Shown here: positions 13,614-62,603 of the stretch, one piece after another | Layout: each line of letters begins with the position of its first letter | Position numbering within the stretch: the stretch's first letter is position 1 | The notes under the pieces: model-generated | Database searches by the model: none | What the model saw: only the letters and a program-made list of their open reading frames with translations | What the model was told of the DNA's origin: nothing | Made by a program: the position numbers and the translations under genes | Assembly (NCBI GenBank): GCA_002774355.1 | Contig: PEYN01000018.1 | Span: 91 to 64,090, forward strand | Origin: Fidelibacterota bacterium CG08_land_8_20_14_0_20_45_22 | GTDB taxonomy: Bacteria; Fidelibacterota; UBA2242 | DNA: 64,000 nt | Reading direction: 5' to 3'

Positions 13614-16600
13614 TCAGTACTCTCCCCAGTTCAGCGCCTTGAGATTTTCCGGTTTGATCCGCGTCAGCGCCTCGACGAACCGCATCGCGATCTGGCGGTT
13701 GGTGATGAGCATAACGTTGTAATCGACCGCGGCGCGTCGAACGAGATAACCGTTGGTGAGCTCTTTTTCCTGATAATTCTTGGGAATATTGATGACGAGA
13801 TCGATTTTTCGCTCCTTGATAAAGGTAACTGCGTTCGGTTCTTTTTTCTCGAGCGGCCAGTAGAGCGATTCGACGGAAATATCGTTCGCTTCGAGAAATT
13901 TTGCCGTGCCGGTAGTGGCGAATAGTTTGACGTTCATATCTCTCAGTGCGCGAATCGATTCCAGCAGTTCCGCTTTCGATTCGATCGGGCCGGTTGATAG
14001 CAGAACCGTTTTGATCGGCAGGCGATAGCCAACGGAGATCAGCGCTTTGAGAAAAGCTTCGTCGAAATCGTCGCCAAGGCAGGCGACTTCACCTGTCGAG
14101 GCCATCTCAACGCCAAGAGTCGGATCGGCGCCCTGTAATCGTGTGAAGGAAAACTGTGGCGCTTTGACGCCGACGTAATTCAGTTCAAACGGCGAAAGCG
14201 AACTCTTGGCAACGGGAATCCGCATGAGGATTTTCGTGGCGCAGTCGATGAAATTATCCTTCAGCACTTTGGAGATGAATGGAAAACTGCGCGAGGCGCG
14301 GAGGTTGCATTCGATGACCTTGACCTCGTTCTTTTTCGCGAGGAACTGAATATTGAACGGCCCGTTGATGTTTAAAGATTTAGCGATCTTTTCGGTGATA
14401 ATGCGGATGCGCCGGACGGTTTCCATGTAGGTCCTCTGCGGCGGTAAAACCAGTGTAGCGTCACCCGAATGAACGCCGGCGTTTTCGACATGCTCGGAAA
14501 TCGCGTAGCGGACGATTTCTCCATTCTGTGCCACGGCGTCGATCTCGATCTCCTTCGCATTTTCTAAATATTTACTGATGACGGTCGGATATTCCGGGGA
14601 AATTTTCACTGCGCGCTGAAGATATTGAACCAGTTCTTCGTCATTGGAAGCGACCGCCATTGCCGCGCCGCTTAACACATAGGAAGGGCGAATTAGTACC
14701 GGATAACCATGCTCGGCGGCGAACGCCTTAGACTCGTCGATCGATGTCAACTCTTTCCATGTTGGTTGATCGACGCCCAGATTGTCAAGCAGATCGGAAA
14801 ATTTACGGCGATTTTCGGCTCGGTCGATGCTTTCCGGCGATGTTCCGAGGATGCGGACGTTGTTACGATAAAGTTTCATTGCCAGATTGTTCGGGATTTG
14901 TCCGCCCATCGAAACGATCACGCCGAGCGACCTGAATGAATCATAGATTTCTATCACGTTCTCAAAATTGATCTCGTCGAAGATCAGGTAATCGAATTCG
15001 TCATAGTCGGTGCTGACAGTCTCCGGATTATAATTCAGCATGATCGTGTTGTAACCCAATTTCCGGAGCGTCTGCCCGGCATTCACGCAAGACCAGTCGA
15101 ATTCGACAGAACTGCCGATCCGGTAGGCGCCCGAACCGAGAATGATGACGGTGTTGGGATTTGGATAAGCCGCGTCGTCCTTAACAGCGTTGTAAGTGAG
15201 ATAAAGGTAGTTCGTCTGGGCGGGAAATTCCGCCGCCAGCGTATCGATCTGACGAATGAACGGTCGGAGATTCCATTGTTTTCTGAGTTGGGAAATTTCC
15301 GCTTCTGTCTTGTCGATTGCTAAAGCGATTTGTTTGTCGGAAAAGCCGTGCTTTTTGGCCGATTCCAAAAGTTCTCTTGAAATGGATTTAGTTCGCGACT
15401 CGATCAATTGTTTTTCGATTTCGACGACATTCTGGATTTTATAGAGAAACCATTCGTTGATGTGCGTCCAATGGTGAATTTCCGAAACGGTTTTCCCAAT
15501 TTCCAGAGCTTTAGCGACGGCAAAGATGCGCTCTTCTGTCGGTTCCCGGAGTTCCTTTTCGAGGTTGTCGAATTCGATGTCGTTGCCGACCAGCCCGTTG
15601 GCGCCGATTTCCAGCATCCGCAGACCTTTCTGCAATGCTTCTTCGAATTTTCGTCCGATGGCCATCACTTCGCCGACCGATTTCATTCCGGAACCGATTT
15701 GTCGCGAGACTTTCCGAAATTTTTTCAAATCCCAGCGCGGAATTTTGACAACGACATAATCCAGCGCAGGTTCAAAAAACGCCGTCGTCGTTTTCGTCAC
15801 GTTATTTGGCAATTCGTGCAATCCAAAACCGAGTGCGAGTTTCGCTGCAATGTAAGCGATTGGATAGGCGGTGGCTTTCGATGCGAGAGCCGAACTTCGC
15901 GATAGCCGGGCGTTAACCTCGATGACGCGATAATCTTCCGATTTTGGATCGAGAGCGTACTGGATATTGCATTCGCCGACGATTCCCAGATGGCGGATCA
16001 CGCGGATTGCGATTTCGCGGAGTTTATGATATTCGGTGTTGGAAAGTGTCTGACTGGGCGCAACGACGATGCTTTCGCCTGTGTGAATTCCCATCGGATC
16101 GAGATTTTCCATATTGCAAATCGTGATGCTGTTTCCGAGCCTGTCGCACATCACTTCATATTCGATCTCTTTCCAGCCCTTAAGGTATTCTTCGATCAGA
16201 ATCTGCGGTGCATAGAGAAGCGCTTTTTGTGCTTTGTCGTTCAGTTCCTTTCGGTTTCGGCAGACGCCTGATCCGAGTCCGCCCAGCGCGTAGGCGATGC
16301 GAACCATCACCGGAAAACCGATTTTATCAGCGAATTTCTCGGCGTCTTCAACGGTCGTAGCAGTATGACTGCGCGCCGTTTTCACGTCGATCTCATTCAG
16401 CCGGTCGATGAAGAGCCGTCGATCTTCCGTATCAATGATCGCCTGGATCGGCGTTCCCAGAACCTTCACGTCATATTTCTGTAAAATTTCGAGGTGATGC
16501 AATTCCAAGCCCGTATTCAGCGCGGTTTGCCCGCCGAAGCCGAGCAAGATGCCGTCCGGGCGTGTTTTTTGGATAACTTTCTCGACGAATTCGGAATTGA

Positions 16601-16808
16601 CCGGCAGGAAATAGACTTCGTCGGCAAGGTTTTCGGAAGTCTGGATCGTCGCAATGTTTGGATTGACGAGAATTGTATAAACGCCTTCGGCTTTTAGTGC
16701 TTTGATCGCCTGACTGCCGGAGTAATCGAATTCGCCCGCTTCGCCGATTTTTAAGGCGGCACTACCGAGGATAAGAACTTTCTTGATCATGATGCACCTT
16801 TTAACCAC
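13614..16808 (-). CDS. carB: Carbamoyl-phosphate synthase large subunit
   Basis: 1064 aa with two ATP-grasp repeats and MGS-like C-terminus; N-terminus MIKKVLILGSAALKIGEAGEFDYSGSQA is canonical CarB. Confidence 0.95.
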   Translation of the reverse strand: MVKRCIMIKKVLILGSAALKIGEAGEFDYSGSQAIKALKAEGVYTILVNPNIATIQTSENLADEVYFLPVNSEFVEKVIQKTRPDGILLGFGGQTALNTGLELHHLEILQKYDVKVLGTPIQAIIDTEDRRLFIDRLNEIDVKTARSHTATTVEDAEKFADKIGFPVMVRIAYALGGLGSGVCRNRKELNDKAQKALLYAPQILIEEYLKGWKEIEYEVMCDRLGNSITICNMENLDPMGIHTGESIVVAPSQTLSNTEYHKLREIAIRVIRHLGIVGECNIQYALDPKSEDYRVIEVNARLSRSSALASKATAYPIAYIAAKLALGFGLHELPNNVTKTTTAFFEPALDYVVVKIPRWDLKKFRKVSRQIGSGMKSVGEVMAIGRKFEEALQKGLRMLEIGANGLVGNDIEFDNLEKELREPTEERIFAVAKALEIGKTVSEIHHWTHINEWFLYKIQNVVEIEKQLIESRTKSISRELLESAKKHGFSDKQIALAIDKTEAEISQLRKQWNLRPFIRQIDTLAAEFPAQTNYLYLTYNAVKDDAAYPNPNTVIILGSGAYRIGSSVEFDWSCVNAGQTLRKLGYNTIMLNYNPETVSTDYDEFDYLIFDEINFENVIEIYDSFRSLGVIVSMGGQIPNNLAMKLYRNNVRILGTSPESIDRAENRRKFSDLLDNLGVDQPTWKELTSIDESKAFAAEHGYPVLIRPSYVLSGAAMAVASNDEELVQYLQRAVKISPEYPTVISKYLENAKEIEIDAVAQNGEIVRYAISEHVENAGVHSGDATLVLPPQRTYMETVRRIRIITEKIAKSLNINGPFNIQFLAKKNEVKVIECNLRASRSFPFISKVLKDNFIDCATKILMRIPVAKSSLSPFELNYVGVKAPQFSFTRLQGADPTLGVEMASTGEVACLGDDFDEAFLKALISVGYRLPIKTVLLSTGPIESKAELLESIRALRDMNVKLFATTGTAKFLEANDISVESLYWPLEKKEPNAVTFIKERKIDLVINIPKNYQEKELTNGYLVRRAAVDYNVMLITNRQIAMRFVEALTRIKPENLKALNWGEY

Positions 16809-16967
16809 AAATGAACACGAATACGCACGAATAAAAGATATTCAGAATTAATTTTGTTCATTCTCATTTGCTGACTTTGTAAAAACCCTTTTTGTCGCTT
16901 TGTGTTTTTTCACGGGCGAAAATCATATATTTCTAATCATTCGCGTTTATTCGTGTCCATTCGGGGT

Positions 16968-18032
16968 TCACTTAATTAATTCCAAAAAGCGATCGAACAA
17001 AAATCGTGTATCGACAGGACCGGGAGAACCTTCCGGGTGAAACTGTACGCTCAGGTATTTACCGGAACGATGGATGATTCCTTCATTTGTTTGGTCGTTC
17101 AAGTTGCTGAACCAAGCCTGCCAATCGCGTGGAAGAGTCTCTTTTTCTACAGCGTAGCCGTGATTTTGCGACGTAATATAACAACGACCCGAAAGATGAT
17201 CGATAACCGGCTGGTTTTGTCCGCGGTGACCATATTTCAGTTTGAACGTTTTTGCGCCGGCGGCGAGCGCCATGATCTGATGTCCCAGACAAATGCCGAA
17301 TGTCGGAATGTTATGGTCGAATGCGAATTTCGCCGAGCGGATTGTTTCGGCGTACATAGTGGGATCGCCGGGACCGTTTGAAATTAAAATCGCGTCGAAA
17401 TCGTACGCTGAAATGTCGGTATTCCACGGAAGCGCCAGTATCTCGAATCCATGATTAATCAGGTTAGAGAAAATGCTCCGCTTGGCGCCGCAGTCGATTA
17501 AAGCGATTCGCTTGTTCCCTTTGCCCAGAATTTCGGATTCCTTCCGGCTGACCTCCGAGACTAGATTGTGCTGATTTGGATCGTAAAATTCTATATCGTC
17601 GTTGATAAAGATCTTGCCAAGCATCGTGCCTTTATTCCGAAGAATCTGCGTTAGCGTGCGCGTGTCGATTCCGGTGATCGCCGGGACTTTTTGTGCGATA
17701 AGCCAATCTGAGAGACTTTGCTTGGAATGCCAGTGGCTGAACGATTCTGAATAATCAGCGACGACGAGACCGCGCACCTGAATTTGATTGCTTTCAAAAT
17801 CGGGATTCGGGAAATCCGGATATGCTGAAATCGGGGCGCCGTAATTACCCGCGAGCGGATAGGTCAGTGTAAGAATTTCACCAAAATACGACGGATCAGT
17901 AAGGGCTTCCGGGTAACCGGTCATACCGGTATTGAAGACGACTTCGCCGGCGGACGACGCAGGAAAGCCAAAAGAAAATCCGTGAAAAACGCTTCCATCT
18001 TCGAGAATTAGACGAGCCGGTTGATAAGACAT
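16968..18032 (-). CDS. carA: Carbamoyl-phosphate synthase small subunit (glutamine amidotransferase)
   Basis: 354 aa; CarA N-domain plus class I GATase (GICLGHQ catalytic Cys motif); immediately upstream of carB on the same strand. Confidence 0.95.
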   Translation of the reverse strand: MSYQPARLILEDGSVFHGFSFGFPASSAGEVVFNTGMTGYPEALTDPSYFGEILTLTYPLAGNYGAPISAYPDFPNPDFESNQIQVRGLVVADYSESFSHWHSKQSLSDWLIAQKVPAITGIDTRTLTQILRNKGTMLGKIFINDDIEFYDPNQHNLVSEVSRKESEILGKGNKRIALIDCGAKRSIFSNLINHGFEILALPWNTDISAYDFDAILISNGPGDPTMYAETIRSAKFAFDHNIPTFGICLGHQIMALAAGAKTFKLKYGHRGQNQPVIDHLSGRCYITSQNHGYAVEKETLPRDWQAWFSNLNDQTNEGIIHRSGKYLSVQFHPEGSPGPVDTRFLFDRFLELIK

Positions 18033-30678: not shown

Positions 30679-30699
30679 AAATCAGGTTGATCCGGTTGA

Positions 30700-30775
30700 A
30701 TAGGTAGATTGGGCTTGTCCGCCACCGGCGGATTGATTAGGTTGATTAGGTTGATTAGGTTAATTAAGTAGATTA
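30700..30775. repeat. Short tandem repeat, 9-bp unit GTTGATTAG (about 4 imperfect copies) in a convergent intergenic region
   Basis: ggattgattaggttgattaggttgattaggttaattaagtagattaa read directly from the sequence. Confidence 0.5.
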
Positions 30776-42955: not shown

Positions 42956-43834
42956 TTAGTTTTCGAAGAGTCCTAATACCTTTTGGGCTTTAGGCACTAA
43001 ATTACCGGAATCGTTTGCCCAGATACTACTGATGTTTTCGGAATATTTATAATCACTATAGTACTTCTGGATCGAATCGGATTCATGAATGACGGCAAGT
43101 CGATCCCGGATACAAGCGACATTTTGGGGATCTATTTCAATGCCTAAAGAATCCCGTTGGAGCTGATGTGCCACTATCAAAGATGTGCCCGTGCCAGCGA
43201 ATGGATCAAAAATGAAGTCGCCTACATTTGTTGAAGAGAGTATAATTCTTAAGAGCAATGCGATTGGCGTTTGTTGTTTATGAAATCTCTCTCCAGTCGA
43301 TAGTCGGATTGCTTCATTTCCAGCGAAATAACCGGATGTCAATTCCCGAATGTCATCCCACACGTCGGTAATAAATACTCCGTTTTCTCTAGGTAGTTTA
43401 TACTCTAATGGAAGTTCGGGATCGATTCTCAAGCGGTGGAAAGTCTTTGCGCGCTCGCCTTTTGTGGCATAAGCAATAATTTGGTAGTGCTTCCCGAATT
43501 TCGTCGTGACAGGAACCGCAGAAGTTTTTTTCTTCCAAATTATCACATTCTGCAATGTCCACCCAGTTTTCCGAAGGGATTGTAGTACAAACTCAATGTT
43601 TTTCTCTCTCTGCATAAAATAGATTGTGCCGCCCGTAGCGGTAATCTCGAAAACTGATCGACATACGGTTTGCATCATTTCCCAATAGGATTCATCAATC
43701 ATATTGTCCTGGTGAAACGCGTATTCCTTGTTTTGATTAAATGGCGGGTCCAAAAAAGTCAGATCGACATGGCGTCTTATTTCACCTGCTGAAAAAACAT
43801 CCAAACAATTTTTATTGATAATATCGTAAGACAT
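42956..43834 (-). CDS. DNA methyltransferase, beta-class (N4-cytosine or N6-adenine)
   Basis: Motif IV DPPF near the N-terminus (LTFLDPPFNQ) and motif I FDPFAGTGTS near the C-terminus: the circularly permuted beta-class order. Confidence 0.85.
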   Translation of the reverse strand: MSYDIINKNCLDVFSAGEIRRHVDLTFLDPPFNQNKEYAFHQDNMIDESYWEMMQTVCRSVFEITATGGTIYFMQREKNIEFVLQSLRKTGWTLQNVIIWKKKTSAVPVTTKFGKHYQIIAYATKGERAKTFHRLRIDPELPLEYKLPRENGVFITDVWDDIRELTSGYFAGNEAIRLSTGERFHKQQTPIALLLRIILSSTNVGDFIFDPFAGTGTSLIVAHQLQRDSLGIEIDPQNVACIRDRLAVIHESDSIQKYYSDYKYSENISSIWANDSGNLVPKAQKVLGLFEN

Positions 43835-43865: not shown

Positions 43866-44693
43866 TCAAACCAATATTTTTGCGGTTCTTAACAGAAATT
43901 CTTCCGTCAGAGCCCGGCACAGATAGCGCCGGTATTCCGCGGTCGAGCGTTGATCGGTAATCGGTCTGACCCTGCGCTCGATGCAATCGAGGATTTCAGC
44001 GGATTTTCCTTCACGATATAATTGCTCGGCTTCGTAAGCCCGGATAATCGTCGGTCCGACCGAGGCGTATGTCAGGCGGATTTCGTTGTTATCCGGCAGG
44101 TACAGACCGAGGAAAGCGACCTTCGAGAGTGAGAGCGCCTTGCGCGGCCCGATCTTGCGATATGAATATTTATAGTTCCACGGAATGTTCAGCCGGATTT
44201 CTGTGAGCAGTTCGTCCGAGCGGAGAATTGTCTTCTTCGGCCCGGTGATGAAGTCGCGAACCGGAATCTTCCGGATACCTTGCGCTGATTCGAGCGTGAG
44301 TTCGGCATCCAGCGCGTAAAAGATCGGAAGTGTGTCGCCCGCCGGAGAAGCATTAACGATATTCCCGCCGAAAGTCGCCATGTTGCGGATTGACGGCGAA
44401 GCAATCTGAGTCACTGCATCGGTCAGCGGCGGAAAAATACTTTTCGCCTGCTCGAGATAGGCGGCGTAGGTCAGACCGGCTCCGATTGTCAACTTTCCTT
44501 CGCTGAAATTTATTTGACTAAGTTCCGAAAGATGATTGATCTGAATGAATACCTGCACTCGTTTGACATTTGTGCGGGCTTGCACAAGTAAATCAGTGCC
44601 CCCGGCGATTGGTTGTGCCACGGTTTGGCTCATCAGATCGAGCACTTCCGATTTTTTAGATGGACGGTAATATTTGAGTTTTTCGTACCACAT
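43866..44693 (-). CDS. Xanthine dehydrogenase-family FAD-binding subunit (CoxM/YgfM-like)
   Basis: FAD_binding_5-type N-terminus (YYRPSKKSEVLDLM...PIAGGTDL) plus CO dehydrogenase flavoprotein C-terminal domain; 275 aa. Confidence 0.85.
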   Translation of the reverse strand: MWYEKLKYYRPSKKSEVLDLMSQTVAQPIAGGTDLLVQARTNVKRVQVFIQINHLSELSQINFSEGKLTIGAGLTYAAYLEQAKSIFPPLTDAVTQIASPSIRNMATFGGNIVNASPAGDTLPIFYALDAELTLESAQGIRKIPVRDFITGPKKTILRSDELLTEIRLNIPWNYKYSYRKIGPRKALSLSKVAFLGLYLPDNNEIRLTYASVGPTIIRAYEAEQLYREGKSAEILDCIERRVRPITDQRSTAEYRRYLCRALTEEFLLRTAKILV

Positions 44694-45117
44694 GTTTATT
44701 TAAAAGTGACGGGTGATGAGTGACGGGTAATTTATGCATATCAATTACGTAAAAATATTCTATTTCTTTTTTCAATGAATTTATTAGTCCTATCAGCATC
44801 TGTCGGATTGTGGCTACTTTTTCATCCAAAGCAGATATATTTTTGATTAACTTTAGATTATTTGCAATAATTAATAACGTTTCTAATTCGCCTAACGATC
44901 CTAACGAAATAAATAAAAACTGAATGCATTCTTTTTTAGAACTTCGTCCAGCGCCTTCGGCAATGTTGGCTGGAATGGATATTACGGGTCTGCGGATTTG
45001 TGAAGTAATCCCGCAGGTTTCTTCTTTGGAAAAATCCCGTGTTAAAGAATAAACCTCCGAACCGAGTTCCATACTTTTCTTCCAAACCTTCAGGTCTTTA
45101 TGGGATTTTATTGCCAT
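44656..45117 (-). CDS. Four-helix-bundle protein (23S rRNA intervening-sequence protein family, TIGR02436-like)
   Basis: MAIKSHKDLKVWKKSMELGSEVYSLTRDFSKEE...QIRR...SIPANIAEG is the hallmark of this family; 38-nt overlap with the downstream coxM-like start. Confidence 0.8.
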   Translation of the reverse strand: MAIKSHKDLKVWKKSMELGSEVYSLTRDFSKEETCGITSQIRRPVISIPANIAEGAGRSSKKECIQFLFISLGSLGELETLLIIANNLKLIKNISALDEKVATIRQMLIGLINSLKKEIEYFYVIDMHKLPVTHHPSLLNKHVVRKTQILPSI

Positions 45118-45143
45118 GTACTCACCCTGTCACTTGTCACTTT
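44703..45143 (-). mobile_element. Inverted-repeat-bounded small element carrying a four-helix-bundle (23S rRNA IVS-type) protein gene, inserted between the FAD and 2Fe-2S subunit genes
   Basis: AAAGTGACGGGTGATGAGTGACGGGTAA at 44703-44730 pairs with the reverse complement of 45121-45143 (AAAGTGACAAGTGACAGGGTGAG). IR-R supplies the last 9 codons of the 2Fe-2S gene. IR-L plus the coxM start supply a 29-aa tail on the 4HB ORF. Confidence 0.5.
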
Positions 45144-45563
45144 CTCCACCGCTTCAACGATCTTCTTATATCCGGTACACCGGCAGAGATTTCCCGAGAG
45201 TGCTTCTTTAATTTCAGCGACAGTCGGATGCGGATTGTGTTTCAGCAGGGCGTAAGCCGATACGACGAATCCCGGTGTGCAGAACCCGCATTGCACCGCG
45301 CCGGTTTCTTCGAAGGATTTGAAAAGTTCATTAGCATTGATGCCTTCGATTGTGGTCACTTCCCGACCGTCACATTGGCCGAGCAGAACCAGACAGGAAT
45401 TCACCGGTTTGCCATCGAGCAGAACCATACACGCGCCGCATTCGCCTTCTCCGCAACCTTCCTTCGTGCCGGTCAGCTTTAATTCACTGCGCAAATAATC
45501 GAGCAGACGCGTTGAGGGAGAGGCTTTTGAGACCCGAGCTATACCATTTACAATAATATTCAC
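45108..45563 (-). CDS. (2Fe-2S)-binding subunit of a xanthine dehydrogenase-family molybdenum hydroxylase (CoxS-like)
   Basis: Plant-type ferredoxin motif GCGEGECGACMV and second cluster motif CGFCTPGFV...CRCTGY. Start uncertain (GTG at 45563/45566 lies inside the element repeat; the ORF call to 45641 would overlap the GxxExxY gene). Confidence 0.85.
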   Translation of the reverse strand: MNIIVNGIARVSKASPSTRLLDYLRSELKLTGTKEGCGEGECGACMVLLDGKPVNSCLVLLGQCDGREVTTIEGINANELFKSFEETGAVQCGFCTPGFVVSAYALLKHNPHPTVAEIKEALSGNLCRCTGYKKIVEAVEKVTSDRVSTWQ

Positions 45564-46047
45564 CACAGAGGACACGGAGGGCACAGAGGTATTTTTATTT
45601 ATTTTCTTTACTTTAGTCATTAATAATTCGGTGAACCCCATCGATTAATTTTACTACGTTGAAATTTATCAATAATCCTAAGATTCGATTAGAAAGTTTA
45701 AGATAAGACAATAATTGGGCTGTATGAATTGGGAGAAGATTTTCGATGGCTTTTAATTCAACCGCAATTTCACCCTCAACTAATAAATCTATCCGATAAC
45801 CACAGTCTAATTTTACATCTTTATAGACCACCGGCAGATCTTTCTGAGATTCCACTTTCAAACCTAATTGCTTTAATTCATACACAAGACATGCTTCATC
45901 GGTGGATTCCAGCAAACCCGGACCCAGTGCACGATAAACATCAGTAGCCTTACCTATTATTTTCTCCGTAATCTTATTTAATTCCTCTCGTGATTTCATC
46001 TATCTATCTAATATTTTCTCTGTGCTCTCTGTGTACTCTATGGTAAA
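45561..46047 (-). mobile_element. Inverted-repeat-bounded small element carrying a GxxExxY-family gene, inserted between the Mo-binding and 2Fe-2S subunit genes
   Basis: CACCACAGAGGACACGGAGGGCACAGAGGTA at 45561-45591 pairs with the reverse complement of 46016-46047 (TTTACCATAGAGTACACAGAGAGCACAGAGAA), about 24/30 matches. IR-R encodes the last 10 aa (VHREHRENIR) of the Mo subunit gene. Confidence 0.5.
45613..45999 (-). CDS. GxxExxY-family protein (PD-(D/E)xK nuclease-like, TIGR04256/PDDEXK_3-like)
   Basis: GKATDVYRALGPGLLESTDEACLVYEL...RIDLLVEGEIAVELKA contains the GxxExxY signature and a D...E.K core; 128 aa. Confidence 0.85.
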   Translation of the reverse strand: MKSREELNKITEKIIGKATDVYRALGPGLLESTDEACLVYELKQLGLKVESQKDLPVVYKDVKLDCGYRIDLLVEGEIAVELKAIENLLPIHTAQLLSYLKLSNRILGLLINFNVVKLIDGVHRIIND

Positions 46048-48232
46048 TCATTTCCGGGGTCAAGGGAATCTCATGGAATTCGACGCCCAGCGCATTCTCG
46101 ACCGCGCCGAGATATGCCGCCGGAATGCCGACTAACGGTTGTTCGCCGACGCCCTTCGCGCCGTACGGCCCGCGCGAGTAATTTTCTTCCAGAATAATGG
46201 ATTCGATTTCCGGCGCATCTAATGTTGTCGGAATGATGTAATCCGTCAGGCTTGCTTGATTCAATCTGCCGTTTGTTGCCGTCATAACTTCCAGCGAGGC
46301 GTAACCGAGTCCCTGCAAAGAGCCGCCTTCGATCTGGCCTTCAACCAGAACCGGATTGATTGCCTTGCCGATGTCGTGCGCCGCCGTGATTTTTCCAACC
46401 GTCACTTCAAAAGTCAGCGGGTCAACAGTAACTTCCACTACTGACGCCGCCCAGGAGTAAATTGGGTAAGCGTCGCCGACAAATTTATCATCATCCCAGA
46501 CGACGTCGTCCGGCACGCGATAAACACGCGTCGCGGTGAAAATACCATTCGTTGCCAGTTTCGCTTTTTCGGCAAAATCCTTTTTGGCGGGCGTCGCTCC
46601 GACCTGCTCCATCAGATCGGTACAACATTGAAAAACCAATCCGCCGACGATCATGGTCGTGCGCGAAGCGACCGTCGGCCCGGAATTTGGCACAATGGCT
46701 GTATTCGGAATTGCCACCGTGATTCTTTCGATGGGAAGAGCCAGCGCGTCGGCGGTAATCTGACGCATGACGGTATTCATGCCTTGTCCCATTTCAACAG
46801 TGGCGATACGGATCAATAATCCGGTTTCATTTGAATAATCGACAGAGGCGGTTGCCTTGATAATTTCTTCGCCTTTGCCCGTAAAACCGCATCCGTGGAA
46901 AAACGCAGAGATACCGATGCCTTTTAAAAGTTGACCATTTCGCGGCTGATTGCGGTATTGATTATATTTTTCAACGAAATTCGTACGCTCGGCGACAACA
47001 TTCAATGCTTTTTCCAAGCCAATGGATTCTGCTAATAATTGGCCGGTCGCCGTACGGTCACCGAGGCGCAAAATATTAATTTTCCGCAGAGAATAAGGGT
47101 CGAGATCCAGGCGATAAGCGGCGTGATTCATCTGAGCTTCGATGGCGAAGAACGCCTGCGGAGCGCCGAATCCGCGAAACGCGCCCGACGGCAACAGATT
47201 TGTCGCTACGGCTTTCGACGCTAAACGGATATGATCGCATTTGTAAACTCCCGGCGAGCCCAGCGCGCCGCGCGCCAAAACTACCTGTGAGAGCGTACTG
47301 TGCGCCCCGCCATTCAATATGAAATCGATGTCCATGGCGATAATGCGACTGTTCTTATCGAAAGCGATCCGGCGAATACTTTGCGACGGATGGCGTTTGG
47401 TTGTCACGGAAATGTCCTCGCTTCGATCATAGACGATTTTGACCGGTTTGCCAGATTTCAGCGCCAGAAGCGCCGCGTGACCGGAAATCAGCGATGGATA
47501 TTCCTCCTTGCCGCCGAATGCTCCACCGGTGGTCGCCTGTTCAACGACTATATCTTCCGGGTCGAGATTTAGCACTGGTGCCAGACCTTTTTGCACGTAA
47601 AACGGGCATTGCATTGAACCGACGATCCTGATGCCATTCTTGAAAGGATAAGCAATCACGCCCTGCGTTTCTAAATAGATATGCTCCTGATAGCCGGTGC
47701 GGAAGGTTTCCTCCAGCACGAATTTGCTTTTTGCGAAAGCTTTATCCGGGTCGCCCTTGACGTAGCCGTAACTCTTGAAAATGTTGTCACTGCCGTAAAT
47801 CGGCGGAAAATTCCCGGACAGCGCGTTTTCCATCGTTGAAATCGCCGGCAAATCTTCGTATTCAATTTGAAATTGTGAAGCGATCGCGCGCAGTTCATCC
47901 TCATTTTTTCCGGCTAACAGCGCAATCGGTTCGCCGATGTAATTGACGACATCTTTCGCCAAAAAGGGTTGATCTTCGTTGAACAGGGCGACGTAATTTT
48001 CACCGGGAATGTCTTCAGCCTTGATATAAATGACGTCGGGCGGCAATTCCGGAGCGACAATCCGCAGAATCTTCGCCCGCTGACGGTTCGAGCGGATCGT
48101 TACACCAAAGAGCATATCCGGAAAATCCAGATCATTGGTATATTTTGCTGCGCCACGCATTTTATCGGCGGCATCAAACCGCACAATCGGCTGGCCGACA
48201 TATTTTAGATCCATTTTCTGTTGATCGGACAT
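46004..48232 (-). CDS. Molybdopterin-binding large subunit of a xanthine dehydrogenase / aldehyde oxidase-family hydroxylase (CoxL/XdhD-like)
   Basis: 742 aa with Ald_Xan_dh_C hammerhead and the two Mo-cofactor binding domains; follows XdhC and precedes the 2Fe-2S and FAD subunit genes. Confidence 0.9.
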   Translation of the reverse strand: MSDQQKMDLKYVGQPIVRFDAADKMRGAAKYTNDLDFPDMLFGVTIRSNRQRAKILRIVAPELPPDVIYIKAEDIPGENYVALFNEDQPFLAKDVVNYIGEPIALLAGKNEDELRAIASQFQIEYEDLPAISTMENALSGNFPPIYGSDNIFKSYGYVKGDPDKAFAKSKFVLEETFRTGYQEHIYLETQGVIAYPFKNGIRIVGSMQCPFYVQKGLAPVLNLDPEDIVVEQATTGGAFGGKEEYPSLISGHAALLALKSGKPVKIVYDRSEDISVTTKRHPSQSIRRIAFDKNSRIIAMDIDFILNGGAHSTLSQVVLARGALGSPGVYKCDHIRLASKAVATNLLPSGAFRGFGAPQAFFAIEAQMNHAAYRLDLDPYSLRKINILRLGDRTATGQLLAESIGLEKALNVVAERTNFVEKYNQYRNQPRNGQLLKGIGISAFFHGCGFTGKGEEIIKATASVDYSNETGLLIRIATVEMGQGMNTVMRQITADALALPIERITVAIPNTAIVPNSGPTVASRTTMIVGGLVFQCCTDLMEQVGATPAKKDFAEKAKLATNGIFTATRVYRVPDDVVWDDDKFVGDAYPIYSWAASVVEVTVDPLTFEVTVGKITAAHDIGKAINPVLVEGQIEGGSLQGLGYASLEVMTATNGRLNQASLTDYIIPTTLDAPEIESIILEENYSRGPYGAKGVGEQPLVGIPAAYLGAVENALGVEFHEIPLTPEMIYHRVHREHRENIR

Positions 48233-48402
48233 CGGTTACAAAGATAATCGTTTCTGGTGAATAATGGTAGAGAGAATTTTTAATTGAAAATTGGTGGCTG
48301 GAGATTGCTAATTTCAAAATTCAAATTGCAAATATTTCATTTCAAATTGGAAGAAAATACAAGTTTAGTTTTCTCCGCGACCGCTGCAGTCTCCGCGGTT
48401 AT

Positions 48403-49179: not shown

Positions 49180-49790
49180 TTTGTTCTCGCTTTCATTTTG
49201 GCAATTCGTTCTGCGGTGGATTGAAGTATTCCATAATCATTGGGCGTGTCCAGATCCAGCAGAATTTCTTCGTCATAAACCGTTACAAACCGCCTTTTGA
49301 ATTGATTAATGATCGTTTTAGGAGTTATGGAAGAATCGTTTTCGTCTGCCGCCAGAATTGCCGTCCGGACTTTTTCGCTGGCGAGGATCGGATGTCCGGC
49401 ACTACGATGGAACGATGGCTGGACAATGTCGGCTTTTTCTGCGGCGATTAATTTTTGGTAAACTTTAGCCGGAATCTGTGGCTGGTCGCCGAGTGCAATG
49501 AAAAAACGTAGCGTTTGAATCTGCGCGGCGCCGACTTTCACCGAAGAAAACATGCCTTTGGCGTACTGTTTATTTTCGACGAAAACCACGCGTTCGTCCC
49601 AGCGTTTCAGATTGACAATATCCTGCGCCCGAAAGCCCACCACGACGATAACCCGCTCCGACACTTCCAGCGCGGTGTCAATGACTGTTTCGACTATCGT
49701 GGATTGCCCGAAAGGCAACAACGGTTTGAAGGCGCCCATGCGGGTGGAAAGCCCGGCGGCGAGGACGACTGTATCAAACTTATTAACCAC
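49176..49790 (-). CDS. MobA/MocA-like nucleotidyltransferase (molybdenum cofactor cytidylyl/guanylyltransferase; YgfJ-like)
   Basis: VVLAAGLSTRMGAFKPLLPF N-terminal NTP-transferase motif; 204 aa; 4-bp overlap with the xdhC-like gene. Confidence 0.8.
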   Translation of the reverse strand: MVNKFDTVVLAAGLSTRMGAFKPLLPFGQSTIVETVIDTALEVSERVIVVVGFRAQDIVNLKRWDERVVFVENKQYAKGMFSSVKVGAAQIQTLRFFIALGDQPQIPAKVYQKLIAAEKADIVQPSFHRSAGHPILASEKVRTAILAADENDSSITPKTIINQFKRRFVTVYDEEILLDLDTPNDYGILQSTAERIAKMKARTK

Positions 49791-49809
49791 GAATGGACAC
49801 GAATTTACA

Positions 49810-51033
49810 CTAATACTTTTTCATACTATTGATTATTGCTTCAAGATTTGGCTCAATTGTCGGTGGAATAGCGATCTTATTTTCTATTGCATTCATATCT
49901 TTAAAACCAACGCCGGTTAAAAGGATAACGATTTTCTGCAAGGGATCGAGGTTACTTTTATCTTTCAGAAATCCCGCCCAGGCCGCGGCGGCGGCCGGTT
50001 CGACGAAAACGCCCGCATCCTGGCAGAGTTGCAACTGAGCGGCGGTAATTTCGGCATCGCTGACTTCCGTAGCCCAGCCGCTACAGGCTTGCATGAATTT
50101 GATGGCCATCCGACCATTAGCCGGCGAAGCGACTGAAATGGAATCAGCCGCGGTTGTCGCCTTGTCAATGGTCAGCATCCTTCCGGATTGATAAGCTTTC
50201 GCGATGGCATTTGAGCCGCTAGCCTGTACGCTAACGATTTGCGGGATTTTCGCAATCAGTCCGGCGACTTTCAGATCGGCAAAACCCTTATAAACTCCGG
50301 CATAAATCACGCCGTCGCCAACCGGCACGAAGACGATGTCCGGCGCGCTCCGGCCAAGTTGATTGAACATTTCGATCGAAACGGTTTTTTTACCCTCGAT
50401 GGTCAGCGGATTGAAAGCCGTGTTGCGGTTGATACCGCCGAATTGCTTTGTGTACTCGATAGACAGTCTGAAGGCGTCGTCGTAAGTGCCGCGAATCGGA
50501 ATGACTGTTGCTCCGTAAAGCACCGACTGCAGAAGTTTGGCCTTCGGCGCAGTCGCCGGAACGAAAAGGATGACATTCAGGCCGAGCGCCGCACCTGCAC
50601 AGGCCATCGCCGAACCGGCATTGCCAGTCGAGGCCAGGACAACGGTTTTCTCGTTATGGTATAAAGCCTGTGCGGCAACCAATTGCGAAGCGCGGTCTTT
50701 CAGCGAGCCGGACGGATTGGCGCCGTCATTTTTCAGGAAAAGATTCGGTAAGCCATATTGCTGGCGCAATTTTTCCGGCGCAACGAGCGGCGTATTGCCC
50801 ACCGGATAGGCGGCGGCCTCCGGCAATTGATAAACGAGAAAATCGGCCGGAGTAACCGCCGGTTTATTTTTCAGCGACGCCAAATATTCCGGATCGAGAA
50901 GGGTTTCCAGCACACCTTTTTGAAATTCGCCGGGAATCTGTTCGCATCGTGGACAAAGATAACGGATTTGGTCGGCCGGATATTCAGCCCCGCAATCGCT
51001 ACAGCGATATTTAAAATTCACAACGCACCTCAA
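49810..51033 (-). CDS. PLP-dependent fold-type II enzyme of the threonine synthase family with N-terminal zinc-ribbon
   Basis: YRCSDCG...CPRC zinc ribbon; PLP-lysine motif NPSGSLKDRAS; Gly-rich loop GVGDGV; 407 aa. Start is TTG (51033) or GTG (51021). Confidence 0.7.
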   Translation of the reverse strand: MRCVVNFKYRCSDCGAEYPADQIRYLCPRCEQIPGEFQKGVLETLLDPEYLASLKNKPAVTPADFLVYQLPEAAAYPVGNTPLVAPEKLRQQYGLPNLFLKNDGANPSGSLKDRASQLVAAQALYHNEKTVVLASTGNAGSAMACAGAALGLNVILFVPATAPKAKLLQSVLYGATVIPIRGTYDDAFRLSIEYTKQFGGINRNTAFNPLTIEGKKTVSIEMFNQLGRSAPDIVFVPVGDGVIYAGVYKGFADLKVAGLIAKIPQIVSVQASGSNAIAKAYQSGRMLTIDKATTAADSISVASPANGRMAIKFMQACSGWATEVSDAEITAAQLQLCQDAGVFVEPAAAAAWAGFLKDKSNLDPLQKIVILLTGVGFKDMNAIENKIAIPPTIEPNLEAIINSMKKY

Positions 51034-51093
51034 ACTTGTAATAAAGTCAGGGCAATTTTACGAAAAACTTGTCACAAAGTCAGGGCAATTTTT
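51033..51093. repeat. Two 28-bp direct repeats (period 33 bp) immediately upstream of the PLP enzyme gene
   Basis: AACTTGTAATAAAGTCAGGGCAATTTTA (51033-51060) and AACTTGTCACAAAGTCAGGGCAATTTTT (51066-51093), 25/28 identical. Confidence 0.55.
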
Positions 51094-51303
51094 CACCATA
51101 GATAACAAGAGGATACAGAAAATCAGTTTATTTTCGTTTATCTATCACAAGAGAGATATTTGAACGATTAAAGAGAGAATTTCACGTGATGAGAATTCGG
51201 ATTCTCCCCGCCTGAACGATGCCAGTCAGGCTGGAGTGCTCTTCGTGGTGAATTATTCAGGCGAAATAAACGCCCGGCATTGATGTTTACTCTGAACCTA
51301 TTT

Positions 51304-59736: not shown

Positions 59737-59760
59737 TTCATTCCAAAGTTAACTAATTTT

Positions 59761-59903
59761 CACCACAGAGAGTATTTTGCCGCGGATTAGCGCGGATAAA
59801 TCAATAATATTTATAGACTCTTTGCTAATATATGGTGTAGAGTTTTTCGTTTTTTTTGTGTTATTGATATAAAGAGATTTTTCTCTGTGTACTCTGTGGT
59901 GAG
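59761..59903. repeat. ORF-less 143-bp MITE-like derivative of the GxxExxY-carrying element, between the sigma-54 activator and ygeW-like genes
   Basis: Termini CACCACAGAGAGTA (59761-59774) and CTCTGTGTACTCTGTGGTGAG (59884-59903) are inverted repeats. They match the termini of the 45561..46047 element (CACCACAGAG..., ...CTCTGTGTACTCTATGG). Internal palindrome CCGCGGATTAGCGCGG. Confidence 0.55.
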
Positions 59904-59913
59904 TTTAAAAACA

Positions 59914-60936
59914 TTACGGTCTTCCGCCCATCGTCAGCGCCATGACGGCTTTCGCGGTATGCAGACGGTTTTCGGCTTCGTCGTAAATGATCGCCGCTGG
60001 TCCGTCAATGACTTCATCGGCGACTTCTTTGCCGCGATCGGCGGGCAGGGCGTGCATGTATTTGACTTCTGGTGCGGCGAGTTTCATCCGGCGGGCGTCG
60101 CAAATCCAATCGGTATGTTTTTCGAGATTGGTCTTCATCTCTTTGCGACACTCTTCTTCATTTTGGTTGTACTCGTCGAATTCATAGTTGCCGAATCCGC
60201 CCCAGTTTTTCGGGATGACAATCTGAGCGCTACGGAATCCCTCATCCATGTTGTCGGTGAATGACAGTTTGCCGCCATTCAGCCGGGTGTTTTCCTGCGC
60301 CTGGGCGACATATTCCTTTTTTAATGGAAATTCTTTCGGCGCGGCGACCGTCACGTCCATACCGAAACGCGGAAAGAGCAGAATTTGCGAAAGCGGTACG
60401 GAGAGCGGTTTAGCGTGACTGGTGGCGTACGCCCAGGAAATCGTGACTTTCAAGCCATGCAAATTTTGCCCGAAATATTCCTGCATCGTCATCAAATCGG
60501 CGATTACCTGCATGGGGTGAAAAATATCATCCTGCAACGAGAGAATCGGCACGGACGAGAATTGCGCCAATTCACGTAGATATTTGTTGCCGATGCCGTA
60601 GAAGCAATTGCGGCAGGCGATGCCGTGTCCCATGCGCGAAAGCACCATGGCAGTATCCTTAGCCGATTCGCCGTGTGAAAGTTGCATTTTGTCGGGTGTC
60701 AAGTCATGGGCATGGCCGCCGAGTTGAGTCATGCCGGCTTCCATCGAATTGCGCGTGCGCGTGGATTGCTCAAAAAACATCATGAAAAGCGTCTTGTCCT
60801 GCAATAGCCGATGCGGCTCACCGAGCGCGAATTTGCGCTTGAGGTCAGCGGCAACCCCGAGCACCATATTGATTTCGTTTTTTGTCCATTCATTAAAAGT
60901 GATGAGGTGTTTCCCTCGTAAAAGAGTCTCGTTCAT
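59914..60936 (-). CDS. YgeW-family carbamoyltransferase (ATCase/OTCase superfamily; oxamate carbamoyltransferase-like)
   Basis: STRTR carbamoyl-phosphate motif; WAYATSHAKPLSVP and MHALPADRG segments closely resemble E. coli YgeW (WAYSPSYGKPLSVP, MHCLPAD). Confidence 0.85.
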   Translation of the reverse strand: MNETLLRGKHLITFNEWTKNEINMVLGVAADLKRKFALGEPHRLLQDKTLFMMFFEQSTRTRNSMEAGMTQLGGHAHDLTPDKMQLSHGESAKDTAMVLSRMGHGIACRNCFYGIGNKYLRELAQFSSVPILSLQDDIFHPMQVIADLMTMQEYFGQNLHGLKVTISWAYATSHAKPLSVPLSQILLFPRFGMDVTVAAPKEFPLKKEYVAQAQENTRLNGGKLSFTDNMDEGFRSAQIVIPKNWGGFGNYEFDEYNQNEEECRKEMKTNLEKHTDWICDARRMKLAAPEVKYMHALPADRGKEVADEVIDGPAAIIYDEAENRLHTAKAVMALTMGGRP

Positions 60937-60946
60937 ATCAAACCTT

Positions 60947-61372
60947 TCATGTTAACCGCGGAGGACGCTGAGAACGCAGAGTTTCTCCTTGATAATTGTT
61001 GACAATTCTTTTTATTCCATTTTTAAGTATGCTTGAATTGAAGTTAATCAACAACCCTACTTGTAGTTTTGAGATTTTTAAGTAATTCAGTAGTTGCGCC
61101 TGATCGATATTGGTCAGTTCGTTGACGGCTTTACACTCAACCACCAATTGGTCGTCGATAAAAAAGTCGCAACGAAAACCTTTTTCTATCACTATGTCAG
61201 CATATTTAACGGACAGATATTTTTCCTTTTCAAATTTCATTCCGGCTTCCTGCATTTCACAAGCCAGGGCGGCCTGATAAACCGATTCCAAAAACCCGGG
61301 GCCAAGATTGCGGTGAACCTTAATCGCTAAACCGATTACTGTTTCCGTCAGTTGGTTTATATCTTCAAACAT
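60947..61372 (-). CDS. GxxExxY-family protein (second copy)
   Basis: GLAIKVHRNLGPGFLESVYQAALACEM...RCDFFIDDQLVVECKA contains the GxxExxY signature; paralog of 45613..45999. Confidence 0.85.
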   Translation of the reverse strand: MFEDINQLTETVIGLAIKVHRNLGPGFLESVYQAALACEMQEAGMKFEKEKYLSVKYADIVIEKGFRCDFFIDDQLVVECKAVNELTNIDQAQLLNYLKISKLQVGLLINFNSSILKNGIKRIVNNYQGETLRSQRPPRLT

Positions 61373-61405
61373 AAAATTGCTCCGTGCCCTCTGCGTCCTC
61401 GGCGG
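60958..61405 (-). mobile_element. Second GxxExxY-carrying inverted-repeat element, inserted between the M20 peptidase and carbamoyltransferase genes
   Basis: GCGGAGGACGCTGAGAACGCAGAG (60958-60981) pairs with the reverse complement of CTCCGTGCCCTCTGCGTCCTCGGCGG (61380-61405). IR-L encodes the C-terminal tail QGETLRSQRPPRLT of the GxxExxY ORF. Confidence 0.45.
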
Positions 61406-61406
61406 T

Positions 61407-62603
61407 TTATTTCCCGCGGCTCAGATTTGCGACCAGTCCGGCGTAGAAAGCCGCGGCTTGCCAGAGGTGCTCGACCGGCGTCCATTCGTTCGGGGCGTGG
61501 GCTTGCTCCTCGAATCCCGGCCCGAAGCCGATGCACGGTATACCATGCACGCCGCGAATCGTCACACCATTGGTCGAGAAAGTCCACTTGTCGACAACCG
61601 GCTCCTTTGCGAACAGGTTGCGGTAGTTTTCAATTCCAGCCTGAACGAGAGGGTGGTCGGTTTCCAGTTTCCAGGTTGGGAAATATTTTTCCATTGGATA
61701 GACTTTTCCGGTGAATGCCTTTTCCCGGTAAACCGGCAATTCGACTTTGGCGTCAATTTTCAGTTTTTCAATGATAGCACGAATTTCCGCTAACGCTGAT
61801 TCCTTCGTCTCGCCCCAGGTCAGGCGGCGGTCGAGATAGATCGAACAATAATCTGGCACGGCACATAATGACGGACTGATAGATTTTATCTGGCTTAGCA
61901 CGACGGTGCCTTTGCCGAGAAATTCATCGAATGCCAGACGTTCGTTGAGCAGTTCAATTTCTTTTATCAGCGGTGCGATTTTGTAAACGGCGTTGTCGCC
62001 GCGTTCCGGCGCGGAGCCGTGCGCGGAAAGTCCGACGACGGAGATTTCGATTTCCATGCGTCCGCGCTGACCGCGATAAATCCGACAGCCGGTTGGTTCG
62101 GTGCTGACGGCGAAGTCGGGGCGGAGGTGGTCTTCATTGACAATATAATTCCAGCACAAGCCGTCGCAATCTTCTTCCATGACCGAACCGACGAAATAGA
62201 CAGTGCAATCTCTGGCGAGGTCGAATTCCATAATAATGCGTGCCGCCGCCAGCATAGACGCCATGCCGCCTTTCTGGTCAGCTACGCCGCGCCCCCAGAC
62301 CTTGCCGTCTTTCACATGACCATCGAACGGATCGAACTGCCACAGACTACGGTTGCCGACATCCACGGTGTCTATGTGAGCGTCGAAAGCGATTTTGACT
62401 GGACCATTGCCGAGGCGCCCGATGATGTTGCCGATGCCGTCGATGATTATTTCATCGAAGCCGATGTCTTCCATTTCCTTTTTTATTCGGCTAATTACAT
62501 TTCCCTCTTGGCCACTCAGTGAGGGAATCGAGGCAAGTTCAGCCAGGAAATTGGCTGTAGAATGATCTAAGCCTTTAGCAAGCCTTATGATTTTTGTTTT
62601 CAT
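61407..62603 (-). CDS. M20-family peptidase, YgeY-like
   Basis: Long collinear similarity to E. coli YgeY (e.g. MEEDCDGLCWNYIV, YRGQRGRMEIEI, HGSAPERGDNA, VVDKWTFSTNGV, HAPNEW). Start placed at the internal Met MKTKIIRL (62603). Confidence 0.85.
   Translation of the reverse strand: MKTKIIRLAKGLDHSTANFLAELASIPSLSGQEGNVISRIKKEMEDIGFDEIIIDGIGNIIGRLGNGPVKIAFDAHIDTVDVGNRSLWQFDPFDGHVKDGKVWGRGVADQKGGMASMLAAARIIMEFDLARDCTVYFVGSVMEEDCDGLCWNYIVNEDHLRPDFAVSTEPTGCRIYRGQRGRMEIEISVVGLSAHGSAPERGDNAVYKIAPLIKEIELLNERLAFDEFLGKGTVVLSQIKSISPSLCAVPDYCSIYLDRRLTWGETKESALAEIRAIIEKLKIDAKVELPVYREKAFTGKVYPMEKYFPTWKLETDHPLVQAGIENYRNLFAKEPVVDKWTFSTNGVTIRGVHGIPCIGFGPGFEEQAHAPNEWTPVEHLWQAAAFYAGLVANLSRGK

Follow-up and report, generated by a model that had tools for sequence, protein, structure and literature searches.

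The 64,000-nucleotide stretch of contig PEYN01000018.1 from Fidelibacterota bacterium CG08_land_8_20_14_0_20_45_22 (hereafter the window, by which the whole stretch is meant) contains two cassettes, each built of a single GxxExxY gene (families TIGR04256 and PF13366) bracketed by inverted arrays of a 9-nt sequence unit, together with a related miniature copy that lacks an open reading frame (ORF). On balance, we consider it probable that these elements belong to a mobile and selfish family of nuclease cassettes that resemble intervening sequences (IVSs) and reside in protein-coding operons. A preliminary description of the window had pointed out GxxExxY genes with shared termini, an ORF-less miniature copy, and a second GxxExxY gene wedged between ygeY-like and ygeW-like genes. 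All of these were recovered, with the genes on the minus strand, and are called here cassette E1, the mini-cassette, and cassette E3, respectively (Table 1). Its count of three loci was too low, as at least five further junctions in the window bear arms.

Beyond the window, GxxExxY loci were sampled as 80 loci from species-representative genomes, to which copies from metagenome loci were added; the groups covered are Chloroflexota, Verrucomicrobiota, Planctomycetota, Bacteroidota, Acidobacteriota, cyanobacteria, Chlamydiota, Pseudomonadota, Methanophagaceae, Methanosarcinales, and others. A second set comprises 80 loci around ygeW homologues, gathered irrespective of GxxExxY; L-numbers (e.g., L024) denote individual fetched loci.

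Cassettes E1 and E3 and the miniature copy

E1, E3, and the mini-cassette share one arm build, namely inverted arrays of two or three CRCRGAG/CTCYGYG units with a 9-nt period. Each arm of E1 is 40 nt long and holds three 9-nt units; the two arms are in inverted orientation and show 78% complementarity. On the coding strand, the 5' arm can also be written ACCATAGAG-TA-CACAGAG-AG-CACAGAG, and the 3' arm splits into the units CTCTGTG-CC-CTCCGTG-TC-CTCTGTGGT. E3 is built in the same way from CGCNGAG/CTCNGCG units, its protein is 45% identical to that of E1, and orthologues of this cassette are present in relatives. The two-unit pattern CTCNGNGNNCTCNGNG occurs eight times in 64 kb, every time in these arms, where an arithmetic estimate gives about 0.1 occurrences by chance, and CTCTGTG occurs nine times in the window against 2.7 expected, a count that is reached in none of 100 shuffles.

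These elements lie in a region (44-63 kb) that forms one long minus-strand gene run, and proteins identical to those encoded there are present on contigs of several independent assemblies. The sole point in favour of chance similarity or an assembly artefact is that the source is a metagenome assembly; with identical loci in independent ENA, JGI, and Logan assemblies and motif statistics far from chance, we give this explanation practically no credence.

The arms also reach into the coding sequences around them. By frame reading, the upstream Mo-subunit ORF (46004-48232) has its final 13 codons and its stop codon in or just after the 5' arm of E1, and this subunit gains a 13-residue arm-encoded tail that ends in YHRVHREHRENIR at the stop codon (46004-46048); database homologues show equivalent arm-encoded tails. 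At the opposite end, the tip of the 3' arm holds an in-frame GTG (45563-45561) for the downstream Fe-S subunit, the start of which is placed by gene callers 26 codons farther upstream, within E1. The last 13 codons of the E3 gene itself are likewise arm-encoded, with the C-terminus TLRSQRPPRLT falling within the 3' arm (60947-60985).

The mini-cassette had been described as similar to a miniature inverted-repeat transposable element (MITE). The part of this description that stands is that its termini are shared with gene-bearing E1: 18 of 19 bases at its 5' end are identical to the 5' arm of E1, and its ends form a perfect 11-nt inverted repeat, TCACCACAGAG/CTCTGTGGTGA (59760-59770 and 59892-59902), for which the chance expectation at this place is estimated at about 0.01. 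The part that does not stand is the comparison with an amplified repeat, as the copy is single-locus and chimeric and has a unique interior. It contains no ORF, a blastx search against GxxExxY proteins was empty, and blastx and blastn searches with its interior gave no GxxExxY remnant and no second copy in the window and all fetched loci. Nested inside it is a 3' arm of a third type, ATCCGCG, which is the type of the GxxExxY cassettes in L015, L016, and L018 and matches the L015/L016 arms at 20 of 22 positions. Origin of the mini-cassette as a deletion derivative of E1 was considered and is unsupported, its interior being unrelated to E1 and free of any GxxExxY remnant.

The GxxExxY protein

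Residue conservation was read from an alignment of 28 relatives that includes both window proteins. E29 (the glutamate of GxxE), D69, and E79 are invariant, K81 is conserved in at least 90%, and Q93xxxY97 is nearly invariant among the 28 aligned sequences. In the E1 protein, an aspartate replaces the tyrosine of the name-giving motif (GLLESTD), and the D, ExK, and QxxxY residues are kept. We take the set E..D..ExK..QxxxY to be the RecB/Cas4/lambda-exonuclease motif, and the idea that the cargo is a nuclease, put forward in the preliminary description, agrees with the retention of these residues. The TIGR04256 model is also passed by the divergent cassette proteins of L015, L021, and L089 (133-135 bits).

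An AlphaFold model of the protein has a mean predicted local distance difference test (pLDDT) score of 87, and its best Foldseek matches in the PDB are Cas4 SSO0001, Pcal_0546, and lambda-type exonucleases, with a template-modelling (TM) score of about 0.5, which corresponds to a generic PD-(D/E)XK fold. A sequence search of the PDB with GxxExxY gave no solved relative, and a PADLOC scan gave a weak Cas4 match alone, for one protein (E 6e-4). From these features, the cargo is predicted to be a RecB/Cas4-like PD-(D/E)XK nuclease of about 125 residues, the catalytic step being deduced from the fold and the retained residues. Tandem two-domain GxxExxY proteins of 250-295 residues occur in the representative library (P0121-P0130 and similar), which suggests that the single-domain protein may act as a dimer.

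The ratio of non-synonymous to synonymous substitution rates (dN/dS) in orthologous cassette genes is 0.02-0.24, with synonymous sites mostly saturated; the GxxExxY protein is therefore maintained by selection. The arms are retained in these orthologous cassettes despite the saturation of dS. The family is large, with 19,281 clusters at 50% identity with E <= 0.001, and PF13366/TIGR04256 is listed as "function unknown" (PMC3424549).

Architecture across phyla

The arrangement found in the window is widespread. At 88 of 110 GxxExxY loci, the best inverted match between upstream and downstream sequence beats all 30 shuffles, and arms of this kind accompany roughly three quarters or more of 100 distinct GxxExxY genes from about 20 phyla. 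The 100-nt stretches upstream of these 100 genes hold 220 matches to the motif C[AG]C[N][AG]A[GT], and 256 matches to its complement lie downstream, as compared with about 19 matches in shuffled upstream windows. The units are spaced by 9 nt (142 cases), 8 nt (64), or 10 nt (30), mostly with two to four units per arm. A TT[A/C]AC tip stands at both outer ends, conserved at 72-79% per position, and internal units carry no tip, giving the consensus 5'-TTMAC(CRCRGAG N2)2-4 ... gene ... (N2 CTCYGYG)2-4 GTKAA-3'. Full copies measure about 450-490 bp. The terminal motif is not a ubiquitous intergenic repeat, being limited in the window to elements and their remnants and travelling across phyla with GxxExxY.

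Typically, the cassette occupies the short gap, a few bases long, that separates the stop codon of the preceding gene from the ribosome-binding site of the following one, and its own gene lies tens of bases from each neighbour. This gene shares its strand with both neighbours in 45 cases, and in 5 it is oriented against both. A search of a phage collection for GxxExxY genes found none, and a plasmid search gave eight records, mostly megaplasmids.

The class of arm tracks the cargo family. GxxExxY genes are accompanied by CRCRGAG units, or by CRCRGAT units in a divergent protein clade, whereas the three cassettes seen with a PF05635 gene (23S_rRNA_IVP, an Avd-like four-helix bundle) have units of the types GTGAC, CAGTGTT, or ATTGAAA/TCTCCAA. 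When clustered proteins are compared with unit variants, the GAG versus GAT split alone follows protein clades; the CAC/CGC and GAG/AAG variants flip between close relatives. An argument from co-evolving specificity of units and protein was accordingly dropped, because the uniformity of units within an element probably stems from CpG decay (CGC to CAC) or from the G+C content of the host.

The association of arm class with cargo bears on the possibility that the elements are non-autonomous repeats, of the type of repetitive extragenic palindromes (REP/REPIN) or MITEs, which are moved by a transposase encoded elsewhere and have captured GxxExxY and PF05635 as cargo or as addiction-type passengers. 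Two unrelated cargo families do share one architecture, and the cargo is too small for a classical transposase. Moreover, the ygeW loci hold 32 arrays beside a GxxExxY gene and 44 farther away, some of these 44 being chance matches, and ORF-less pairs or solo arms are about as frequent there as full cassettes. However, with one trans-acting enzyme, arm class would not be expected to follow cargo family from phylum to phylum as it does, the miniature copies are single-locus with unique interiors unlike amplified MITE families, and the GxxExxY protein is under strong purifying selection. No transposase-type Pfam domain was found among the called genes of the fetched parts of the contig, which cover part of the window past its first 38 kb. 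We therefore regard this explanation as distinctly unlikely.

Turnover at operon junctions

The ygeY-ygeW junction, occupied by E3 in the window, is an empty spacer of 11-37 bp in many relatives (L032, L034, L037-L052, and others) and is occupied in closer relatives. On the ygeW nucleotide tree, the occupants change within shallow clades. L024 and L025, with 99% nucleotide identity in ygeW, carry different GxxExxY lineages, which match window proteins at about 72% and 35%, respectively, and have arms of the CGCNGAG and CACAGAT types. L033 is ORF-less and L175 has a full cassette, with 98% identity in ygeW, and L014 and L016, with 94-95% identity, hold different cassette types. The GxxExxY gene of L023 is internally deleted, and L020, L028, and L029 are ORF-less, as is L033.

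In pairwise alignments, homology breaks 15-25 nt before the upstream stop codon and resumes a few bases past the 3' arm. Divergence is raised over the last 20-60 nt of the upstream gene beside the cassette (the last 50-60 nt in L014/L016), a pattern that we read as the signature of allele replacement through recombination in the flanks.

Other junctions behave similarly. The ygeW-sigma-54 spacer, where the mini-cassette lies in the window, holds a different miniature element in each strain, including one with a 5' arm only and one with mismatched arm types, and at the PALP-NTP-transferase junction in L016 and L018 a solo arm of one type is fused to a complete miniature element of another. Cassettes decay to deleted, ORF-less, chimeric, and one-armed remnants, such as the 143-bp copy in the window.

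Relatives of the E3 protein with 71-77% identity are found at unrelated junctions, and the element therefore also reaches new sites. One of them lies upstream of an aconitase-type large subunit gene, which a PF05635 cassette separates from the small subunit gene; another is flanked by an HD-domain gene and an isocitrate-dehydrogenase-type gene. The suggestion of a mobile family that was made for the window fits these data well, given the empty-site alleles of the ygeY-ygeW junction, the replacement of lineages in near-identical strains, and the 77%-identical relative at an unrelated junction. No exact pair of empty and filled sites from which a target-site duplication could be read was found, the closest relatives all carrying a cassette or a remnant.

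This turnover also argues against the cassettes being modules of benefit to the host, that is, defence or RNA-processing accessories whose arms are regulatory sites repeatedly recruited into operons. Such a role would accord with the purifying selection on the protein, with its weak similarity to Cas4 (the PADLOC match at E 6e-4), and with a report in which 23S_rRNA_IVP genes were read as functionally associated with cas operons (PMC3936711). However, there is no consistent partner, as the junctions include xdh, ygeY/ygeW, aconitase-type, and isocitrate-dehydrogenase-type genes; occurrence is sporadic among near-identical strains and decay to remnants is frequent; and defence-model matches are limited to the weak Cas4 match, with no phage records and eight plasmid records. 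A host-beneficial role is, in our judgement, very improbable.

RNA helix or DNA motif

The complementary arms raise the question of whether the elements act as RNA. In the minimum-free-energy folds of all three window loci the arms pair, with z-scores of -2.5 to -4.2 (-2.5 for E1). One could thus imagine a purely RNA-level IVS, in which the arms form a stem in the operon transcript that is cut by RNase III or preserves translational coupling, the ORF is a passenger, and spread occurs by gene transfer and homologous recombination. The size and the stem of about 27-28 bp match the RNase III-excised IVS in Coxiella 23S rRNA (PMC4990558), the strong co-orientation fits reliance on a host transcript, the arms directly adjoin the stop codon upstream and the ribosome-binding site downstream, and some young copies (L108, L121, and L149) have perfect inverted repeats of 30-45 nt.

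Against this, the evolution of the arms does not look like that of a helix. Among the arm mismatches of 69 elements, G:U pairs (93) are not in excess over A:C (89), showing no wobble bias on the sense strand, and the antisense strand folds at least as well as the sense strand. Units match each other equally well whether they are compared in mirror register (3.47 of 4 variable positions) or out of it (3.38), with 2.49 between elements. In nine orthologous cassettes, invariant motif positions give 86% of paired cells and the variable columns are mostly unpaired; covariation in these nine is not above shuffles, with a score of 0.080 versus 0.071 and 113 of 500 shuffles at least as high. In L173, a central A-A mismatch is found in all three units. 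Furthermore, the conservation of the motif and the TTMAC tips across phyla, in the face of saturated synonymous sites, is not what helix constraint alone predicts. We consider the purely RNA-level explanation unlikely.

Because the wobble, register, and covariation tests, together with the conservation of the motif across phyla, show no selection for pairing, we read the arms primarily as arrays of recognised sequence; pairing would be a by-product, which may still matter in the RNA. Scans for sigma-70 promoters and intrinsic terminators over 44-63 kb gave counts equal to those of shuffles, which speaks neither for nor against a promoter of the cassette's own, and Rfam scans found no family in the window or in 16 related loci.

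Proposed mechanism

The favoured explanation, a mobile and selfish nuclease cassette, may be set out as follows. The tips and motif arrays would be DNA cis-sites for the encoded nuclease, which would probably act as a dimer. A break at or near a junction, or at a resident arm, would be repaired from a cassette-bearing copy. Between strains, the cassette would spread via homology in the flanking genes, as in the homing of free-standing endonuclease genes; within a genome, rare moves to new junctions might occur, perhaps by arm-to-arm homology. The cassette gene, taken to be promoter-less, would be expressed by read-through of the operon, as suggested by its nearly constant co-orientation with its neighbours. 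In the transcript, pairing of the arms may give an interrupted stem, about 27 bp long, which encloses the insert and, by analogy with rRNA IVSs, could be cut by RNase III, a role that would be secondary. In this scheme, the initiating break by the GxxExxY nuclease and its recognition of the units are predicted steps.

Several points weigh against this explanation. The strongest argument against a cargo-driven mechanism is provided by the PF05635 cassettes, which share the architecture: because the four-helix bundle of PF05635 has no known nuclease role, the cargo may not be the mobilising enzyme. The GxxExxY protein itself is a 125-residue PD-(D/E)XK core without an obvious separate DNA-recognition domain, and its nuclease activity is putative, as is any cleavage site. 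The arms pair in all minimum-free-energy folds, so an RNA role may exist, and the CGC/CAC and GAG/AAG variants may reflect host G+C content or CpG decay and not protein specificity. With regard to movement, no near-identical copies at two loci of one genome were found among the data, and the replacement seen between strains could result from gene transfer followed by ordinary recombination, to which the element contributes nothing. In addition, the TA/TTAA at the ends (TTAACCGC...GCGGTTAA) is palindromic, which makes a target-site duplication inseparable from an extension of the inverted repeat.

A bolder form of the favoured explanation can be offered only tentatively, and we regard it as possible rather than probable. 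In this form, GxxExxY cassettes would be autonomous, undescribed micro-mobile elements of Bacteria and Archaea, in which a nuclease dimer that recognises TTMAC tips and CRCRGAG arrays, at its own ends and in resident cassettes, drives homing, replacement, and occasional transposition into operon junctions; PF05635 cassettes and rRNA IVSs would be sister branches.

Relation to known systems

The elements exhibit considerable similarities to the ORF-bearing IVSs of 23S rRNA in Coxiella and Leptospira, and there are also clear differences. The Coxiella 23S IVS is 428-444 nt long, has a 28-bp stem, is cut by RNase III, carries a small ORF that tends to decay, and is sporadic and horizontally transferred (PMC4990558). 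The resemblance to IVSs that was noted for the window is borne out in size (about 450-490 bp) and in arm length (27-40 nt), which match this IVS (PMC4990558). As in rRNA IVSs, terminal inverted repeats surround one small ORF (441-491 bp here versus 428-444 nt), and the termini are complementary in the class of 20-30-bp stems, with arms here of 27-40 nt that lack compensatory evolution; the window cassette at 44703-45143 even carries the IVS-type PF05635 ORF. Sporadic, horizontally acquired occurrence and a tendency of the ORF to decay are further features in common. Unlike rRNA IVSs, however, the elements described here lie between protein-coding genes and not in helix 25 or 45 of rRNA, and Rfam finds no rRNA in the window. 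Their cargo is a putative PD-(D/E)XK nuclease and not S23p, their arms consist of a repeated, conserved 9-nt unit and carry conserved tips, and arm evolution shows no sign of helix constraint.

The free-standing homing endonuclease genes of T-even phages (seg and mob) encode GIY-YIG or HNH enzymes and lack arrays of terminal repeats. The similarity to these lies in a small nuclease gene that is wedged between conserved genes and is present, absent, or replaced at one junction, and in the divergence of the flanking genes beside the insert, which resembles a co-conversion tract. The differences are the terminal arrays, the absence of a phage record with GxxExxY, and the cleavage of the empty allele, which for our cassettes is a prediction. 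The cassettes show the population-genetic hallmarks of a free-standing homing gene, the enzymology being predicted.

Correia elements of Neisseria are MITEs present in high copy number; their interior is conserved, they have a TA duplication, and RNase III cleaves their inverted repeats. Our elements resemble Correia-type MITEs as short terminal-inverted-repeat elements at gene junctions that are probably co-transcribed and have ORF-less forms, but the miniature copies here are single-locus and chimeric with unique interiors, and the full element carries a gene of its own. Thus, the elements depart from rRNA IVSs in location and from MITEs in both copy number and the lack of a conserved interior.

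Tn7 and the plant transposons Ac and En/Spm have subterminal repeated binding sites, and TnsA of Tn7 is a PD-(D/E)XK nuclease that works with TnsB. Like the ends of these transposons, the cassette ends combine a conserved tip with several copies of a short motif, inverted between the two ends. Unlike them, they are accompanied by no DDE or other known transposase, the sole protein being the 125-residue PD-(D/E)XK core.

A structured RNA gene is among the places where short tandemly repeated repetitive (STRR) arrays are found. To our knowledge, there is no description of them as inverted pairs around a gene, and CRCRGAG is not a classical STRR motif as far as we know. The likeness consists of tandem units of 7-9 nt in transcribed non-coding DNA, and the GTGAC-type arms of the PF05635 cassette resemble STRRs, which we mention as a lead only. 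The title of Vioque 1997, as cited in PMC7593598, concerns STRR heptamer arrays of heterocystous cyanobacteria.

A full-text search of the open literature, which did not extend to subscription literature, found the GxxExxY family mentioned only as "unknown" or in passing and nothing on the arms. The cassette is accordingly undescribed in the open literature searched, with prior description elsewhere possible.

Implications

GxxExxY and PF05635 genes are both carried in one kind of arm-bracketed cassette, copies of which invade operon junctions, displace each other, and decay, and the two families thereby gain a concrete context as probable selfish elements. PF05635 has remained "uncharacterised" since rRNA IVSs were found (PMC11270868, PMC4990558), and the origin of these IVSs gains a testable model. 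The bolder form, if true, would explain both the origin of rRNA IVSs and what two very large, functionally uncharacterised families do. Where 23S_rRNA_IVP genes occur within cas operons, they have been read as functional partners (PMC3936711); the present data suggest that they are invaders instead.

There are also practical consequences. For annotation, cassettes add arm-encoded tails to host proteins, shift predicted start codons, and may be mistaken for functional members of an operon, for example of cas operons (PMC3936711). In metagenome-assembled genomes, they form hot spots at which strains differ. In addition, use as a tool is conceivable for a minimal nuclease that is directed by sequence and has a defined 9-nt unit.

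Further copies and remnants in the window

The coordinates of all features are collected in Table 1, including the PF05635 cassette, which is a sister of E1 and E3 with a different cargo, and the remnants outside the three loci discussed above.

Table 1. Cassettes, arms, genes, and remnants in the window, in positions of the whole stretch
Feature	Position	Strand	Description
Genes of the region	44-63 kb	minus	xanthine-dehydrogenase-type subunits, XdhC, PALP enzyme, Nitro_FeMo-Co-type proteins, sigma-54 activator, ygeW-like carbamoyltransferase, ygeY-like M20 peptidase
Cassette E1	45558-46048	minus	491 bp; between xanthine-dehydrogenase-type Mo subunit gene and Fe-S subunit gene
E1 5' arm	46009-46048	minus	sense strand: ATTTACCATAGAG TA CACAGAG AG CACAGAG
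E1 3' arm	45558-45597	minus	sense strand: CTCTGTGCC CTCCGTGTC CTCTGTGGTGAAT
E1 GxxExxY ORF	45613-45999	minus	128 residues; TIGR04256 138 bits (cut-off 35); PF13366 E 8e-39
Cassette E3	60954-61407	minus	454 bp; between ygeY-like M20 peptidase gene and ygeW-like carbamoyltransferase gene
E3 arms	5' arm 61380-61407; 3' arm 60954-60981	minus	28 nt; complementarity 79%
E3 GxxExxY ORF	60947-61372	minus	141 residues; TIGR04256 146 bits (cut-off 35); PF13366 E 4e-41
ORF-less mini-cassette	59760-59902	minus	143 bp; between ygeW-like gene and sigma-54 activator gene
Outer arms of mini-cassette	sense 5' arm 59883-59902; 3' arm 59760-59770	minus	CACAGAG type
Nested 3' arm in mini-cassette	59779-59799	minus	third arm type, ATCCGCG; sense strand: TTATCCGCGCTAATCCGCGGC
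PF05635 cassette	44703-45143	minus	between xdh Fe-S and FAD subunit genes
PF05635 ORF	44656-45117	minus	153 residues; 23S_rRNA_IVP, Avd-like four-helix bundle
PF05635 cassette arms	45126-45143 and 44703-44727	minus	inverted arrays of GTGAC-type 7-8-mers
Solo 5'-type arm	48373-48401	minus	sense: TAACCGCGGAG AC TGCAGCGG T CGCGGAG; directly after XdhC-like stop codon
Solo 3'-type arm	49783-49814	minus	ATTAGTG, ATTCGTG, ATTCGTG, then tip GGTTAA; PALP-NTP-transferase junction; PALP stop codon inside
Probable decayed ORF-less pair	51092-51252	minus	TTCACCACGAAG ... CTATGGTGAA; 270-bp spacer; weak call, judged by eye
Clean ORF-less miniature element	16803-16970	minus	CRCGAAT units; TGAACCCCGAATGGACACGAATAAACGCGAAT ... 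ATTCGTGCGTATTCGTGTTCATTTGTGGTTAA; tips TGAACC/GGTTAA

The solo arm at 48.4 kb is followed by 7-mers of the ATTGNAA type at 48270-48350, like those that flank the PF05635 gene in L173. In that locus, the PF05635 gene (L173:1788-2348) separates the genes for the large and the small subunit of an aconitase-type enzyme and has long arms with ATTGAAA/TCTCCAA-type units, and a GxxExxY cassette precedes the large subunit gene. The miniature element at 16.8 kb occupies the spacer between ORFs 13614-16808 and 16968-18032, 28 kb from the loci of E1, the mini-cassette, and E3.

Two other observations were made in the window. A gene for an N6/N4 DNA methyltransferase (PF01555) lies at 42956-43834 on the minus strand, directly downstream of the xdh cluster; a restriction partner was not noted. 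The enzyme may conceivably be linked to the CpG-type variation among arm units. Finally, about nine units of 9 nt (TTGATTAGG and variants) form a direct array at 30681-30775 on the plus strand, around a G+C-rich hairpin at a convergent gene junction, with neither an inverted partner nor an ORF.

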